The position numbers and the translations under genes were made by a program. From the IMG/VR virus record IMGVR_UViG_3300026097_001055, positions 1 to 64,000 of that record: 64,000 nt of DNA; one strand, written 5' to 3'. Below, one piece after another: positions 2,694-35,369 of the stretch. The DNA is from a virus. The notes beneath the pieces were generated by a model, which had not been told where the DNA came from, searched no databases, and was given only the letters and a program-made list of their open reading frames with translations. Positions within the stretch are counted from its first letter, which is position 1, and the number at the start of each line of letters is the position of its first letter.

Positions 2694-2921
2694 CTATGTA
2701 ATTGAATCAAAATTCTTAAGCTCTACGTTTCTATGTTCTGATTTAACAGTACGGTCTGATAAAACAATAGCTCTTTTTAATTCATAGTTTAATAAGTTGT
2801 TAGCTTGACCAACTAGTTTACCCATAGCATTTGCACTTGCAACATCTATAGTACCTTTGTCTAGTTTTTCCATTGTTGAGCATATCATAGCAAACATGGA
2901 TTTAGTATTTACTGGTTTCAT
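2694..2921 (-). CDS. Hypothetical protein (75 aa)
   Basis: ORF in operon with 4-5 bp spacing to neighbours. Confidence 0.7.
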   Translation of the reverse strand: MKPVNTKSMFAMICSTMEKLDKGTIDVASANAMGKLVGQANNLLNYELKRAIVLSDRTVKSEHRNVELKNFDSIT

Positions 2922-2925
2922 ATTA

Positions 2926-3363
2926 TTATATTTTATTATTGACTTTTCTTCTCAAAGCTATAACTTTAGCTTTTGTTTTTATAAACTCTACAGGAACCTT
3001 AGATTCAGTTAATTCTTGACCCATACGTTCAAAAATACTTTTTGTACTAGTTAAAGCTCCTTTTAAATCACTGCAGTTTTGACAAACATTTGTTTTATGA
3101 GTCAATCCGGGAATGTTCTGACATTCATAGGGCTGAACCATATCTTTTAAATCTTTAGTCTTTTTACAGTGTATACAAGTGTATTCTTTTTTTGATTCAC
3201 TAATCAAACTTAAATAATACTCTTTTACAGATTTATCTGATGTTGCACAATGTGCTATCCATTTTATATACTTAAAAGGAATCTTTTCTAAACTAACATC
3301 TTTATACTTAGTGTTTCCTTTAAGCTTGCCATCATGGATCCATACTTTTAAATGTAAATTCAT
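2926..3363 (-). CDS. Hypothetical protein with zinc-ribbon-like CxxC pairs
   Basis: CIHC and CQNC motifs; operon context. Confidence 0.65.
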   Translation of the reverse strand: MNLHLKVWIHDGKLKGNTKYKDVSLEKIPFKYIKWIAHCATSDKSVKEYYLSLISESKKEYTCIHCKKTKDLKDMVQPYECQNIPGLTHKTNVCQNCSDLKGALTSTKSIFERMGQELTESKVPVEFIKTKAKVIALRRKVNNKI

Positions 3364-3369
3364 ATATAA

Positions 3370-3774
3370 TCATTTTAAATAACCTAATTCTCTAGCTTCT
3401 GCTGGAGAATTGTGAATTCTGTTATGACAGCTACGGCATACAGCCATATAAGTTGTAGTATCTAGATATGTAGTAGATCTTTCTTCACCACCTTTGATAT
3501 GATGGATTTCTGTAGAAAAACCTGAACAACCAGGTAACTTAGCTTCACATAGATTATGCTCATTAAGATATAAAGTACGTATTTTAAGATACTCAACCGT
3601 TTCTTTCTGTCTTTTTTTGGATACACGGGGAATCTCTGTTTTGCGTTTTGGTTTTTTAATGTTATTGCTATCATGAGTACTCCAGCAACTTTTGCAAAAT
3701 TTCAATCCCCCGTGATTTTTCCAAATATACTGTTCAGAGTTACACCCTGCACATATTTTCTTTTTAGCTTGCAT
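3370..3774 (-). CDS. Small Zn-binding HNH endonuclease-like protein
   Basis: CAGC/CKSC N-terminal Zn ribbon; EIHHIKG...CRSCHNRIH HNH signature. Confidence 0.8.
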   Translation of the reverse strand: MQAKKKICAGCNSEQYIWKNHGGLKFCKSCWSTHDSNNIKKPKRKTEIPRVSKKRQKETVEYLKIRTLYLNEHNLCEAKLPGCSGFSTEIHHIKGGEERSTTYLDTTTYMAVCRSCHNRIHNSPAEARELGYLK

Positions 3775-3776
3775 AA

Positions 3777-4061
3777 TTAATGCCTATAAAGAGCTAAAGC
3801 TTCTTTATCACAAGGAACTAACTTTTGTATTAGTTCTTCATTCTGTAGCTTATTACCCATTTGTGTTACAAATTCCTCACCTTTTTCTTTCCAATGTACA
3901 TAGATAGCCCAATCATGAATTTCACCACGTTTTGCTACCCATAACAGTTCCTTACCTATATTTTCATTAGTCATATAAAGATCATCAGGTGAGTTTATAG
4001 ATACACCTACTCTAAATACTGTACCTGACGGTAATAATTCTAATTGTTTTTTATTTAACAT
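3777..4061 (-). CDS. Hypothetical protein (94 aa)
   Basis: ORF in operon. Confidence 0.7.
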   Translation of the reverse strand: MLNKKQLELLPSGTVFRVGVSINSPDDLYMTNENIGKELLWVAKRGEIHDWAIYVHWKEKGEEFVTQMGNKLQNEELIQKLVPCDKEALALYRH

Positions 4062-4114
4062 ATTTCATTGACTTTTGACATTGTTTAAATTTTTAAATTG
4101 TTCTTAGCGATGAG

Positions 4115-4369
4115 TTAGGCAACATTTAGAATATCAATCAAGTCTTCTAAATTGCAGTCGCCATTCCACAAAGAGTATTGTAAACATTTGTCATCTAAAA
4201 AAGTAAGTTGGTCATTTATATTAGCAAGTTCTGTATAGTCAAATACATTTACCTTAATACATTTAACAGGCAAGTGTTTTGAGTATTCTTTGCTTACACT
4301 TATTTTGTATCGTAAGTTTGCCAATACCCTTTGTTCCAAATCTCTGTATTGTAATTTTAAGTTTTCCAT
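4115..4369 (-). CDS. Hypothetical gene-cassette protein (84 aa, start re-set to ATG 4369)
   Basis: MENLKLQY...; preceded by GTTAGGC, and the stop codon lies within GCCTAAC. Confidence 0.7.
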   Translation of the reverse strand: MENLKLQYRDLEQRVLANLRYKISVSKEYSKHLPVKCIKVNVFDYTELANINDQLTFLDDKCLQYSLWNGDCNLEDLIDILNVA

Positions 4370-4380
4370 AATAAAACGTT

Positions 4381-4502
4381 GCCTAACAAAGTGTATAAGC
4401 AATAGCCGTTAGGCGTTTTAAATTATTGCAGTTGTTAATATTAAATTTTGTTATTCTAATCAAGGTCAGTGTAGGCTACTACCCATACACAAACCGTAGC
4501 AC
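4381..4502 (-). mobile_element. attC-like recombination site (Bacteroidota-type gene cassette boundary)
   Basis: Minus strand: degenerate GTGCTAC ... GTGTATGGGTAGTAGCC ... GGCTATTGCTTATACAC ... GTTAGGC. Inner arms 4391-4407 and 4474-4490 are 13/17 complementary, and the remaining positions are G-T wobbles. Confidence 0.6.
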
Positions 4503-4506
4503 AATA

Positions 4507-4743
4507 CTAAGTTAGCATCGTTAGCATTTGCTGTCTATATTTTTCAGCATCATTTTTACCGTATTTTTTTAAGGTTTCTAAGGCTTTAAATTCTTCGTCA
4601 TACCCAAGTTTTATTGATGCGGTAACACCTTCTAAATCTGTTCTTATTTCGACATCATAGCTATCATCTTCATTATTGTAATTTAAGGTCAATAAAACTT
4701 GTTCGTCGTTTTCTAATTCAATCAATTTCGCAAATTTACTCAT
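4507..4743 (-). CDS. Hypothetical gene-cassette protein (start 4743 or 4752)
   Basis: ORF flanked on both sides by attC-like palindromes. Confidence 0.7.
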   Translation of the reverse strand: MSKFAKLIELENDEQVLLTLNYNNEDDSYDVEIRTDLEGVTASIKLGYDEEFKALETLKKYGKNDAEKYRQQMLTMLT

Positions 4744-4753
4744 TTCGTACATT

Positions 4754-4885
4754 ACCTAACAACGTATATAATCTATTGCTATTAGGGATTTATTTAAACG
4801 TTAATTATTATTTATTTTTAAAGTGGTCGAATTTGACCACTTTGCATTTTTATACGCAACATATCATATACAAATCACGTTACCC
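4754..4885 (-). mobile_element. attC-like recombination site
   Basis: Minus strand GGGTAAC ... GTATATGATATGTTGC ... GCAATAGATTATATAC ... GTTAGGT; arms 4764-4779 and 4856-4871 are 13/16 complementary. Confidence 0.6.
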
Positions 4886-4938
4886 ACCATTAAGAAGTGA
4901 GTCTTCGCCCTGTTGAGTGAGTTATCTGCACAATAGTG

Positions 4939-4946
4939 CAAATATA
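4939..4946 (-). promoter_or_regulatory. Bacteroidota housekeeping-type -7 element upstream of the cassette array
   Basis: TATATTTG followed by CA on the minus strand fits the TAnnTTTG consensus. Confidence 0.5.
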
Positions 4947-4967
4947 CTTTAAATAAATAATCCATGT

Positions 4968-5345
4968 TTGTTTATAAGTTCTTCGCATTAATATCTTGCG
5001 TAAACAACCTGGTATTAACTAACGTAGAGCTACCAGAACTTTCTCTCTACTACATAGATTATTAGCACCATCTATAAAGCTGAGACCAACATTCTCATTA
5101 AACTATTTTGTATAGCTCACTTTATAAATGGTCAAGAAGTAAATATGGGTCTTTCAAGGTTACTGCATTAATGAGAGGTTAACCTTTACCTATAATCTCA
5201 ATTTAATCAGCTTTACCATTACTTCTTTGCTGTGAACTCCCATAACTATTATTCTGACTTATCACTATACATTCAGTAGTTATCCTATACATTACTGTAA
5301 GGTTTTAATATTAAGGCTCAGAGGGTTTGAGTTCCTGTATTCTTG
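4968..5345 (-). ncRNA. Candidate large structured ncRNA, 3' part
   Basis: No long ORF. Many nested or pseudoknotted complementary pairs: AAGAAGTAA/TTACTTCTT, AAGGTTA/TAACCTT, CTCATTAA/TTAATGAG, GTAGAG/CTCTAC, CTGGTA/TACCAG, AAGTTCT/AGAACTT. Confidence 0.55.
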
Positions 5346-5832
5346 CTAATATTTTTTCATCTTCATCGAAATAATGAATAAAATCTCTATCCGCTTGAGC
5401 TTCTTCTAAAGTTTTTCTAGTTTGGCAACAATGCCTTTTACTATTTACTCTAGCATAAGCTCTGTAGTTCGTTTCATTTTTGTATTTTAATGCTTCAATA
5501 CAAAATGTTTCAGATTTATCTTTTCTATTATGTCCATTGATTCTATTGGTAACAGTTCTTAAATTTTCTATTTTATTGTTAAGAGTATTATTATCAATAT
5601 GGTCAATTTGAATGGACAAGTCTTCAAAATTACCATTAAAATAAATCCATATTAATCTATGAACCCTGTATCTAACACTTTTAATTTGAGTAATTAAATA
5701 TTTATGTCCATGTTGTCCTACTTTAGTAGGAGTACCAATGGGTTTATTTGTAGTTTTTCTAATTAAATTACCGTCTTTGTAGTAAAATAAAGACTTTAAT
5801 TCTTGTTGTGATATACACTTTTTTGCTTTCAT
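5311..5832 (-). CDS. HNH homing endonuclease (HNH_3 type; start re-set to ATG 5832)
   Basis: YRVHRLIW...IDHIDNNTLNNKIENLR signature plus a C-terminal putative DNA-binding segment. Confidence 0.9.
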   Translation of the reverse strand: MKAKKCISQQELKSLFYYKDGNLIRKTTNKPIGTPTKVGQHGHKYLITQIKSVRYRVHRLIWIYFNGNFEDLSIQIDHIDNNTLNNKIENLRTVTNRINGHNRKDKSETFCIEALKYKNETNYRAYARVNSKRHCCQTRKTLEEAQADRDFIHYFDEDEKILARIQELKPSEP

Positions 5833-5847
5833 ATTATTTATTTTATA

Positions 5848-5879
5848 CAAAGATAATAAAAATACACTTATAAAACAAA
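5848..5879 (-). promoter_or_regulatory. Bacteroidota -33/-7 promoter for the HNH gene
   Basis: Minus strand TTTG-N20-TATCTTTG, 15 nt before the ATG. Confidence 0.7.
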
Positions 5880-5883
5880 TGTT

Positions 5884-6105
5884 AAGTGTAATAATGTACA
5901 ACAAGAGTAGCCATTTTTCAATCTATTGACTACTCTTTCAACCATATCACAATACAGTTGGTACACTTGATAGATTTAATATGTAAGTCCATTTAACACT
6001 CTCCACGAGGAATTATACTTGTTACAGTTTATATTCTATCTTTTTTTAGTGAACATGAGGGGATTTCTCCAGCCGTGAAGCACAAGGAATAAGGTTTAAC
6101 CTATA
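5884..6105 (-). ncRNA. Candidate large structured ncRNA, 5' part
   Basis: Hairpins CAACTGTAT/ATATGGTTG and AAGAGTAGTCA/TGGCTACTCTT (G-U pairs only in the minus sense); loop ATAGATT is complementary to upstream AATCTAT (pseudoknot). Confidence 0.5.
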
Positions 6106-6113
6106 TTTTAATG

Positions 6114-6319
6114 TTAAAACAACTCTGTTCATTTCCAAGTGGAATATAACTGTGGCAAAGATAATAATCTCCACTGAATCCATACATAATCATATCTTAC
6201 AATAAACAACGTACACTTGGCTGTACTATAATTCTCCTGTTAGCCTTCAAATTCCTTGAAACTACAGCTTTCATGTAGTGCAGGAGCGTTACTGTTTATC
6301 TTCAGCAGAGTTGTTTTAA
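6114..6319 (-). ncRNA. About 205-nt multibranch structured RNA element
   Basis: Perfect 14-bp closing stem TTAAAACAACTCTG/CAGAGTTGTTTTAA enclosing CTCCTG/CAGGAG, CTACA-TGAAAGC-TGTAG, TTCAA/TTGAA and GTAC/GTAC hairpins. Confidence 0.55.
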
Positions 6320-6335
6320 TTTTTTAATTTTAAAG

Positions 6336-6415
6336 AAAACAACAGCTTCATTTATACTATCTATCTCAACTTTACCAAGGTCTTTAACCTACTGAAGAGT
6401 TTTCACTGTTGTTTT
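6336..6415 (-). ncRNA. About 80-nt structured element
   Basis: 10-bp closing stem AAAACAACAG/CTGTTGTTTT with internal CTTCA/TGAAG and AGGT/ACCT pairings. Confidence 0.4.
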
Positions 6416-6421
6416 ATTATT

Positions 6422-7144
6422 TTAAAGGTTTTCTTCAATCCATTTATTGAAAGATTTTAAATCTTCATACCCTCCAACATAACTACTATCCCCAATATGT
6501 TCTCTATATAAAGAAATTAATTCTTCAACTTCCTCTCTATTATACATTTTCTTCTCTACTGGGTGTATTTTAATAGTATTGTGAGAATCTGTTTTGATTT
6601 TATACTCCCAATCATAAATAACTTCTCCAAATACTATTGGCTCAACTTCAACCAGCACTTCATCAATACCTCCTGCTTTGCAGTAAGCTTCAATAAATGC
6701 TTGAGATGGTTGAGGTAAACTTATACCATTTAAATTTTCTTCAATGGTAATATATTCTTTAGTTAAATCTTTACCTGATTTAATTTTTAAAGAACTATCA
6801 GTTGTAGCAATGATTTTTTTACACTCATCTCTCTGTCTTTCAAATGTAAAATCAATTTTATTGCATTTGTAGGTGATAGGTGTATCGGAGGATAAGTACA
6901 AAAACCAATCACCTTCTTCAATCTTTTCATCTGTTATGATATAAAGCTCAAAAGGTTGTATGTGAAATCCATAAGACTTATCATCTTTAAATGCGTCTTT
7001 ATTTGGTTGCAACTTTATTTCAAAAGAATTATCTTCCAAATTGATTAACTTACACATATTACCTCTTTCAGTAGGCAACATAATTACCTTTGCTTTAATA
7101 CAAGGTTTATCCTTATACATTATTATTTTAGTATTCGTTTCCAT
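6422..7144 (-). CDS. Hypothetical protein typical of Bacteroidota phages (240 aa)
   Basis: LYIITDEKIEEGDW and CKKIIATTDSSL motifs; C-terminal MYNREEV...FNKWIEENL module. Confidence 0.75.
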   Translation of the reverse strand: METNTKIIMYKDKPCIKAKVIMLPTERGNMCKLINLEDNSFEIKLQPNKDAFKDDKSYGFHIQPFELYIITDEKIEEGDWFLYLSSDTPITYKCNKIDFTFERQRDECKKIIATTDSSLKIKSGKDLTKEYITIEENLNGISLPQPSQAFIEAYCKAGGIDEVLVEVEPIVFGEVIYDWEYKIKTDSHNTIKIHPVEKKMYNREEVEELISLYREHIGDSSYVGGYEDLKSFNKWIEENL

Positions 7145-31465: not shown

Positions 31466-33082
31466 ATGAGTACACCAGTTTTAAACAATGGTATCTTTCT
31501 ACGAGATACAGCTTACAATGCTAGTTCACATGTAGATTCTTACCACCTGGTTAACATGTTGAAAGACGCAGAACCTATGGATATGGGGCCAGTAGACCTT
31601 TGGGCTATGGCACAAAAAGTAGAAATGCCTCTTTATCAAATGGCTAACTTTGGAGGTAAGAATGTTGTTATGGTTGACAATGCAAGAGGAGAGTATAAAT
31701 GGCAAACACCAGTTAGTCAAGACTTACCTTACATTATTGAAGACTTAGAACCTGCTAATGAGTACAAAGGAGTAGACGGAACAACTTTCCGTATTAAGAC
31801 CAACAAGCGTGAATTTGGTCATGGAGACATTATTACTTATGATAAGTATAATGGTATTGAACTTTACATCACTGATGAAGACATTCTTCCTACAGGTGAT
31901 GGTTTTGTTTATACTGTTAGTCTTGTTAATAATGGTAATGCACGTTTCTTTGATAACAGATTCCTTGCTTCAGGTACTAAGTATTTCCGTAAAGGTTCTG
32001 CTCGTGGTGAATATGGAGAAAGATTCTCTGATATTACTACAGGTGCAGGATTCCGTGAGTTCTATAACTATGTAGGAGGTGCAGAAGCACACGTGCATTA
32101 TTCAATTTCTTCTCGTGCTGACCTTATGATTAAGGGTGGTATGAATGCAGACGGTACAGTTCCAGTAACTGAAATCTGGAGAAACTTTGATAAAACTGTA
32201 GATCCATCCATTAACTCTCTTGAGGACATGGTTAAAGTTATGGGTAAAGACAAAGTAAAGAAAGCTTTTGATAATGGAGATTTATCACGTACTTTCCTTA
32301 CTCAAATGGAATCAGCTCATTTAACTAAAATTGCTAAAGATATTGAGACATACCTTATGTGGGGTCATGGTGGACGTGTTCGTCAAGATGGTCCAGATGA
32401 TGTTAGATTATCAGTAGGTCTTTGGAAGCAATTGGATAACTCTTTCAAAAGAGTATATAACAAGAACAACTTTACATTAGATTTATTCCGTGGAGAAATT
32501 TATAATTTCTTTAATGGTAAAGTTGAGTTTGAAGGTCCAGATCCAAAACGTGAGTTAATTGTACAAACTGGTATGGCCGGTATGCGTATGGTTAATGAAG
32601 CTATTGCTAATGAAGCTGTTAACTCTGGTCTTGTTATTCAAGCTGCAGATATCGGTGCAATCACTGGTAAAGGTATGGACTTGAATTTTGGATTCTCTTA
32701 CACTTCTTATGTTATTCCTTTCTTAGCTAACGTTAAGTTTGTAGTTAATCCAGCATTTGATAATGTTCATACAAATGATATTGAGAACCCAATCATTGAT
32801 GGTTACCCATTATCATCTTATTCTTTCATCATCTTTGATATTACTGATAACACTAATGATAACATATTCTTATTGAAGTTATCTTGGGATAATCAGTTGA
32901 AATGGTGGTATCAGAATGGTACTATGGATTACATGGGACGTAGCCAAGGATTCCAGTCTTCTGGACAATTTAATGGATATCGTGTAATGATGTCACAAAC
33001 AATGCCTGCTATTTGGGTTAAGGATCCAACTAAGGTTCTTAAAATAGTAATGAGAAACCCAATTACTGGAGGAAGTTTCTAA
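31466..33082 (+). CDS. Major capsid protein (crAss-like)
   Basis: 538 aa after scaffold; strongly biased codons; GLWKQL, VNPAFD and IWVKDPTK..KI motifs; followed by a terminator. Confidence 0.88.
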   Translation: MSTPVLNNGIFLRDTAYNASSHVDSYHLVNMLKDAEPMDMGPVDLWAMAQKVEMPLYQMANFGGKNVVMVDNARGEYKWQTPVSQDLPYIIEDLEPANEYKGVDGTTFRIKTNKREFGHGDIITYDKYNGIELYITDEDILPTGDGFVYTVSLVNNGNARFFDNRFLASGTKYFRKGSARGEYGERFSDITTGAGFREFYNYVGGAEAHVHYSISSRADLMIKGGMNADGTVPVTEIWRNFDKTVDPSINSLEDMVKVMGKDKVKKAFDNGDLSRTFLTQMESAHLTKIAKDIETYLMWGHGGRVRQDGPDDVRLSVGLWKQLDNSFKRVYNKNNFTLDLFRGEIYNFFNGKVEFEGPDPKRELIVQTGMAGMRMVNEAIANEAVNSGLVIQAADIGAITGKGMDLNFGFSYTSYVIPFLANVKFVVNPAFDNVHTNDIENPIIDGYPLSSYSFIIFDITDNTNDNIFLLKLSWDNQLKWWYQNGTMDYMGRSQGFQSSGQFNGYRVMMSQTMPAIWVKDPTKVLKIVMRNPITGGSF

Positions 33083-35309: not shown

Positions 35310-35369
35310 ATTAATGTGCTCCTCATGCCTCTTAACAATGCACACTTGAGGAGCCTTTTAATAATTATT

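Follow-up and report, generated by a model that had tools for sequence, protein, structure and literature searches.

Architecture of a probable two-cassette array

The 64,000-nucleotide stretch of DNA analysed here (the window) covers the opening 64 kb of a viral genome sequence 114,890 bp long, IMG/VR record IMGVR_UViG_3300026097_001055 (G000), with an estimated completeness of 96%. Positions 4114–4885 of the window hold 772 bp that we describe as a two-cassette array, each cassette consisting of one attC-like palindrome (120–130 nt) and one small open reading frame (ORF). Both ORFs are on the minus strand, which carries every gene in the first 12 kb of the window. The ORF of cassette 1 (4115–4369) encodes 84 aa with no family match, and that of cassette 2 (4507–4752) encodes 81 aa matching phrog_19244, a family of unknown function; beyond this, PHROGs gave nothing informative for the two products and Pfam gave no match. 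A homologue of the cassette 2 ORF, 80% identical as DNA, is found in viral contig L043 behind another site family.

An initial annotation, made from the sequence alone, had proposed integron-type gene cassettes at this locus, and the features that it listed are indeed present. On the minus strand, GTTAGGC (4381–4387) and GTTAGGT (4754–4760) each precede a minus-strand ORF, 10–18 nt ahead of its ATG. The 64 kb contain just three copies of GTTAGGC, every one of them inside 4114–4414, and the arrangement CCTAAY-N-GTTAGG was observed three times against an expectation of 0.34. Read in integron orientation, that is on the plus strand, the array has its left boundary at 4114–4120 (G|TTAGGC); the minus strand of this word is the trailer GCCTAAC of the 84-aa ORF, which includes the TAA stop codon. 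Site A, belonging to cassette 1, spans 4381–4496, with an R'' box GCCTAAC (4381–4387), stem arms at 4391–4407 and 4474–4490, a conserved interior (4408–4473) and a spacer AAACC. After G4496 the sequence reads TA, so that the G|TT expected here is short of one T; this one-base loss in R' is accompanied by two extra transitions in the stem. Site B, belonging to cassette 2, spans 4754–4885, with R'' box ACCTAAC (4754–4760), arms at 4764–4779 and 4856–4871, interior 4780–4855, spacer AAATCAC and a terminal G4879|TTACCC. On the plus strand, cassette 1 accordingly runs from G4114|TT to G4496 and cassette 2 from there to G4879|TTACCC. Both sites have R'' and R' boxes of the integron form (RYYYAAC and GTTRRRY) around an imperfect palindrome, and the 3' halves of R' are supplied by the neighbouring cassette, as expected. 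The interior of site B contains a perfect 9-bp hairpin with a 6-nt loop (4820–4843), which is missing from the family B copies mentioned below.

More than 50 viral contigs hold copies that share 80–92% identity with site A, and copies of family B are found in Tenacibaculum phage JQ, L027 and L032. An alignment of 46 copies gives a consensus stem of 15–17 bp, with 15 pairs in the consensus. Five stem pairs show compensatory double changes between families A and B, and two are, when read on the coding (minus) strand, conserved G.T (G.U) pairs. The spacers between the feet and the stem are unpaired and unequal (3 and 5–7 nt). Apart from the two conserved G.T pairs the stems of both families are regular, without bulged bases, whereas other sites in related arrays have bulges.

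The two ends of a cassette are also related to each other. The 84-aa ORF is enclosed by a 14-nt inverted repeat (4114–4127 and 4374–4387) that is 93% complementary, the leader GTTAGGCAACGTTT pairing at 13 of 14 positions with its own trailer AAATGTTGCCTAAC. This is the R'/R'' relationship that the initial annotation had read as the mark of an excisable cassette, and it extends to other cassettes. Leaders consist of GTTAGG followed by CAC.. or CAAC.. until the ATG, and trailers run from the stop codon to ..GTGCCTAAC or ..GTTGCCTAAC. A CAACG leader goes with a ATGTTGCC trailer in nine of ten parsed cassettes and, on reading by eye, in a tenth (L012), CACAG or CACTT leaders go with ATTGTGCC trailers, and rare variants covary in the same manner (GGTGC with GCAC in L037; GTTATGCAC with GTGCATAAC in L016). 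Out of eight variable positions, a leader pairs on average at 7.04 with its own trailer, at 3.68 with the trailer found across the element, which belongs to the neighbour, and at 6.46 ± 0.11 (maximum 6.82) with shuffled trailers. Such pairing is as expected if the cassette ends flank the hairpin in a putative circular intermediate.

Recurrence, exact boundaries and turnover

When window positions 3000–6500 were compared as DNA with 50,697 phage records, the sole matches fell on its own two intergenic elements, with copies in Cellulophaga phage phi18:3 and Tenacibaculum phage JQ. A 25-nt degenerate core of the site matched 53 viral and 36 bacterial contigs, the latter almost all from Bacteroidota and from several of its classes, which agrees with the Bacteroidota cassette pool that had been suggested as the source of the genes. 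Beyond the element, what the viral contigs have in common with the window is limited to a single homologous cassette ORF and a single unrelated gene. Every viral copy lies directly 5' of the ATG of a small ORF (27–96 aa where complete) whose sequence varies by copy; across the 53 viral and 36 bacterial contigs, the palindromes recur beside unrelated ORFs.

Eight pairs of viral contigs have in common units of 317–421 nt that are 88–100% identical within unlike flanks. In all eight pairs the unit starts at (Y)TAAC|GG and ends with CCTAAC(G). These boundaries indicate that a site moves together with the ORF lying downstream on the coding strand, as one unit cut within AAC (G|TT on the complement). 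On the complementary strand, its order is reversed ORF, R'' box, stem, interior, stem and G|TT, so that by its layout the unit reads as a canonical integron cassette except for the reversed gene. The excisable type of unit foreseen by the initial annotation was therefore retained, and its limits were moved: the cut falls not at the GTTAGGC before the ATG but at AAC|, which on the plus strand is G|TT at positions 4114, about 4496 and 4879.

Other kinds of site were seen in the related arrays. "Half sites" follow the trailer as ..CTAAC|GGACGAGT(G)TAT.. in L010, L017, L043, L109 (Polaribacter phage P12002L, around 32640–32700) and L105/L108 (Polaribacter phage Freya_10); they have the 5' arm alone, a 3' counterpart and a GTTAGG ahead of the next ATG both being absent. 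A further family of short sites, with a hairpin of about 45–55 nt and a conserved TTTTAA loop between CCTAAC and GTTAKR, is present in L002, L024, L051, L056 and L109 and recurs in several unrelated phages.

Variation was also found at the locus itself. Contigs from four public metagenome runs (X2, X3, X4 and X8) were aligned on window positions 2900–6300. The contigs of X2, which come from another study and are 100% identical, follow the window to 4117 (the GTTA of the left boundary) and continue into a different cassette end. Relatives in X4 and X8, 95–99% identical to the left, depart from the window at 4098; about 15 bases further on they read GTTGGAC, GTTAGGG or GTTATGC, the starts of other cassettes. 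Their coding-strand junction words, AAC|TCATGTATAA and AAC|TAATGTATAA, resemble the junction that precedes phage recombinase genes (see below). One contig of X3 joins 4098 to 4938 through 67 other letters, the length of the non-cassette flanks (15 + 52), and the 772-bp array is therefore absent from this contig. Cassettes are thus gained and lost at G|TT of this locus in near-identical genomes. The X2 contig, otherwise identical, also departs from the window at 4817, near the hairpin inside site B. The labels of the public runs are mixed (soil, lake, sediment, marine plankton) and point to no single habitat.

The last cassette is followed on the minus strand by a junction (4062–4113) that reads AAC|TCATCGCTAAG..., a degenerate attI-like position, and contains the remnant of an ORF. 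This ORF of eight codons (MSKVNEIC plus stop, 4055–4081, minus strand) lies directly after the cassette. In viral contig L033 a full-length ORF occupies the corresponding position behind a cassette end, and its start is matched by the leader and initial codons of the eight-codon ORF, which has the look of a stump left by a lost gene or cassette. On the low-coordinate side the array is neighboured by a minus-strand ORF of 94 aa (3777–4061) and on the high-coordinate side by a gene-free stretch (4950–5310). PHROGs places HNH endonuclease genes on both sides of the locus, at 3370–3774 and 5311–5904. Additional cassette ends were sought across the 115-kb genome, and none stood above the control; a tRNA scan gave no match, and the sole Rfam match in the window at gathering score is an abiF RNA at 35319–35354 (37.1 bits, cut-off 37). 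A search for relatives with the protein encoded at 6422–7144 returned just two distant loci (32% identity).

The initial annotation had further placed a Pc-like promoter upstream of the cassettes. The motif TATATTTG does lie at 4939–4946 on the minus strand; TAnnTTTG occurs 110 times in the window, with 108 expected, and we reject it as a Pc promoter. It is situated at the attI-distal end of the array, and the phage ORFs occupy the non-canonical strand, so the locus does not have the layout of promoterless cassettes oriented towards Pc. Inspection by eye of the conserved site interior yielded no convincing match to the Bacteroidota -33/-7 promoter, and the idea that the site carries a cassette promoter is a guess.

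A linked recombinase family and arrays in bacteria

As the initial annotation had noted for the surroundings of the locus, the phage carries no integrase: the tyrosine recombinase profile PF00589 has no match in the whole 114,890-bp record. A tblastn search of the window with seven phage recombinases (E ≤ 10) returned noise only, which indicates that no decayed recombinase gene is present there. The window accordingly has no attI next to an integrase, the junction at 4062–4113 being weakly attI-like. With two sites 373 nt apart and no integron integrase in 114,890 bp, the locus has the composition of clustered attC sites that lack an integron integrase (CALIN), for which at least two attC sites within a few kb are required and no integron integrase in the replicon.

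Recombinase genes are found in relatives. In all five bacterial genomes tested, the best match to the integron-integrase model was on the same contig as the site, 1.6–39 kb away. It was on the upstream side of the array in four genomes (adjacent to, and divergent from, the first cassette in L090) and on the wrong side, 28 kb away, in G004. The array-linked bacterial recombinase is a Xer-like tyrosine recombinase of 279 aa. These proteins align to residues 8–183 and 242–318 of VchIntIA (2a3v) and have 15 residues in place of its 58-residue IntI-specific insert; they score 95–129 bits against the NCBIfam integron integrase model TIGR02249, for which the cut-off is 265. Classical IntI identity was rejected for want of the insert and of any TIGR02249 match over the cut-off in the five genomes.

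Full-length homologues (266–268 aa, 34–42% identical) are encoded 0.4–2.7 kb from the element in seven viral loci, and an eighth, L048, has a partial match. The viral genes lie on the strand of the cassette genes, at the end of the array. In six of the seven loci (all six whose junction was read) the gene is preceded by a conserved junction of the type ...YAAC|TATYATATAT. The family is represented in cultured phages, namely Cellulophaga phage Ingeline and Polaribacter phages Freya, Leef and Danklef. Two Freya isolates have flanks that are 99.8–100% identical, and Freya_10 has, relative to Freya_1, 4,921 extra nt with twelve small ORFs. The insertion point of this block falls precisely between ...TTGTTTACAAC and ACCCCTATAAC (YAAC|) and precedes the recombinase ATG by 57 nt; the block starts with GGATATGG... 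and ends with ...TTGTTGCTAAC, the same ends as the viral cassettes. In relatives the AAC|TATYATATAT-type junction before the recombinase, where the Freya insertion lies, corresponds to an attI. An HNH endonuclease gene directly follows the recombinase gene in the Freya phages too. The publication describing these Polaribacter phages sees in the integrase an indication of lysogeny and says nothing of cassettes (PMC8776804); our findings call into question the "integrase" of Freya, Danklef, Leef and Ingeline as a lysogeny marker.

Could homologous recombination between conserved intergenic repeats move these ORFs without any dedicated recombinase? The promoter-early stem-loop (PeSL) modules of T4-type phages offer a precedent: small accessory ORFs in a plastic region are shuffled by means of repeated stem-loop intergenic elements, in a process thought to be driven by homology, without a dedicated recombinase or a fixed triplet crossover. 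The present genome likewise has no recombinase, a 125-nt element provides homology of 80–92% identity between genomes, and some ORFs stand behind different element families. Against this, the right boundary has just about 10 nt of common sequence and yet a constant triplet, and many array sites are unrelated in sequence except for their feet. Moreover, the arrays of bacteria and those of phages share a link to one recombinase family, and the Freya insertion lies at a fixed site beside the gene. We therefore regard homology-driven exchange as unlikely. The cassettes resemble PeSL modules as small ORFs flanked by stem-loop elements and differ from them in their exact boundaries and their linked recombinase family.

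Most bacterial copies have the same arms and feet as the phage sites and a different interior; the adjacent gene is on the opposite strand and ends at the R'' box, so that gene orientation in bacterial arrays is canonical. Five of the 36 bacterial contigs have instead the phage-type interior and a same-strand ORF, in bins labelled as unrelated taxa: Methanolobus (L064), Gammaproteobacteria (L066), Saccharofermentanales (L069), Alphaproteobacteria (L070) and Bacteroidales (L082). These are probably mis-binned phage contigs, and their bin labels are for this reason unusable as hosts. Among the bacterial arrays, a 1,378-bp cassette with a cNMP-binding regulator gene, a peptide deformylase gene and a site is more than 99% identical in five genomes, comprising Sphingobacterium, Albibacterium and a metagenome-assembled genome (L085 2630–4007; also L090, L078, L080 and L068). 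It starts at G|TTAGGTGC, has the R'' word GCACCTAAC, ends in ...CCG|TT and is flanked by other, unrelated attC-like palindromes. Identity at this level across different genera points to a recent horizontal spread of the cassette. In L085, the two-gene cassette is followed by one without an ORF.

The bacterial arrays also bear on the possibility that the elements are signals at the RNA level, such as 5' leaders, RNase III-like processing sites of the kind found between T7 genes, or terminators, their apparent mobility being module exchange. The phage element is always 10–18 nt 5' of an ATG on the coding strand, its stem has G.U pairs on that strand, the copy in the window folds as a 17-bp RNA stem, and the unusually conserved phage-type interior could be an expression signal. 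In bacteria, however, the same arms stand opposite to the strand of the adjacent gene: relative to the crossover point, the strand bearing the G.T pairs has one and the same polarity in phages and bacteria, although their genes are on opposite strands. Polarity thus follows the crossover point and not transcription, which we take as the best argument that the constraint on the site acts on DNA rather than mRNA. In addition, the complementarity spans the ORF (leader with own trailer) and not the hairpin, and the boundaries are precise at AAC. The covariance models of Rfam 15 gave no match at the locus at gathering or permissive thresholds, and none in 20 bacterial loci at gathering score. An RNA-level explanation consequently seems, if anything, slightly less plausible to us than homology-driven exchange, and a secondary role of the site in expression is possible.

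Movement by an HUH (Y1) transposase inserting 3' of TAAC, as for IS200/IS605 derivatives or repetitive extragenic palindromic (REP) elements, would account for the direct TAAC words at the unit ends, the subterminal hairpin on one strand and the strand asymmetry, and is nevertheless the most improbable of the alternatives, given that no Y1 transposase was found in the 114,890-bp record (PF01797) or seen beside the arrays examined, that the arrays adjoin tyrosine recombinases instead, that the feet match the integron words RYYYAAC/GTTRRRY and that a site of this type was recombined by IntI1 in a published study (PMC9892861).

A probable integron-like system of Bacteroidota and their phages

Taken together, we consider it probable that 4114–4885, as a two-cassette array without a recombinase gene, belongs to a site-specific recombination system of integron-like kind that Bacteroidota share with their phages. 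At the level of sequence comparison, this reading is carried by the covarying structure of the site, the exact unit boundaries, the mobility of units between genomes, the linkage to one recombinase family and the turnover at the locus. In this reading, a cassette is an attC-like imperfect palindrome (feet RYYTAAC ... GTTAGG, a 15–17-bp stem, a variable or family-specific interior) together with one small gene. Cassettes are joined to one another and to the genome at AAC| of the best-folding strand (G|TT on the complement), and each would pass through a circular stage with the hairpin between its two ends. The phage cassette gene points away from the crossover point, which puts the site in its 5' leader, and bacterial genes are in the canonical orientation. 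In the mechanism that we propose, the short Xer-like recombinase would catalyse the exchange, and its substrate would be folded single-stranded DNA, as in integrons. The initial annotation had invoked a tyrosine recombinase acting in trans. The recombinase family found in relatives supports the choice of enzyme, which is of the short Xer-like type and not a classical IntI; as for its action in trans, we infer that the enzyme serving this phage came from the host chromosome or a co-infecting phage, or else was lost after the cassettes had been acquired.

Several observations weigh against this reading. When the sites of the window were folded as single-stranded DNA (DNA parameters, both strands), they did no better than shuffles (z from -0.6 to -2.2), and support for the structure is therefore comparative rather than thermodynamic. 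The covariation counts in turn use related sequences, so that the shuffle tests overstate significance. No extrahelical bases were seen in the stems of families A and B, and the linked recombinase is without the IntI domain that reads them; the chemistry may thus differ from that of integrons. Some ORF families stand behind different site families (the window and L043; L009 and L011), which a single crossover point does not explain. At the locus itself, the loss of a T from R' at site A and the degenerate junction at 4062–4113 mean that the array may be a relic or partly decayed. At the X3 joint, with its 67 letters, a precise empty site is likely rather than certain. Finally, no recombinase is encoded in this 96%-complete genome, and activity at this locus is therefore only putative.

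A broader view, towards which we lean by a narrow margin, is that Bacteroidota chromosomes and phages form one cassette economy run by short Xer-like recombinases, which are without the domain held to be essential for recognising attC, in which phage cassettes are mirror images with the site as 5' leader, and in which recombinase-less phages of lytic type (crAss-like) keep an active insertion hot spot, served in trans, with turnover of small accessory genes from one otherwise identical genome to another. The same cassette logic would then operate through a different, shorter recombinase, widespread in the phages of a major phylum and also present in host chromosomes. If true, this would widen the definition of the integron, supply a mechanism by which small accessory genes, candidates for functions in host takeover or counter-defence, turn over rapidly in phages, and provide a direct route of gene exchange between host arrays and phages. 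The system is testable in cultured Polaribacter and Cellulophaga phages (Freya, Danklef, Leef and Ingeline).

Integrons are the textbook gene-capture device of bacteria and are defined by IntI with its extra domain. The system described here resembles them in its RYYYAAC/GTTRRRY feet, its imperfect palindromes of 50–130 nt, the G|TT crossover and the complementarity between the cassette start and its own R''; its arrays likewise adjoin a tyrosine recombinase gene with a fixed insertion point, and the genes of bacterial arrays are in the canonical orientation. Having one highly homogeneous site family, it further recalls the Vibrio cholerae repeats of sedentary chromosomal integrons. It differs from integrons in its recombinase, of 266–279 aa, with 15 residues against 58 in VchIntIA and a score below the NCBIfam integron-integrase cut-off. 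It also differs in having no evident extrahelical bases in the stems of families A and B, in the reversed genes of the phage cassettes, with the site in the 5' leader, and in being carried by phages, including lytic-looking ones.

According to a survey with IntegronFinder 2.0, Bacteroidetes have In0 elements and one complete integron only, and integrons are deemed rare there (PMC9024848). We found no published account that describes this family of short recombinases, the reversal of polarity, the common site family or the arrays of bacteria. The one related study that we found in print is Qi et al. 2023, who report CALINs in phages without an integrase, among them virulent ones such as Polaribacter phage P12002L (PMC9892861). 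The passages of that study that were searched are silent on Cellulophaga, Flavobacteria, Bacteroidota and crAss-like phages, and in them we saw none of the features added here, namely a recombinase family of the phages' own, reversed polarity, a shared 125-nt site family, bacterial arrays and turnover between isolates. The two sets of observations meet in P12002L: its sites, which lie beside methyltransferase genes, are of the type found in the window, and one of them recombined with attI1 under IntI1 (PMC9892861).

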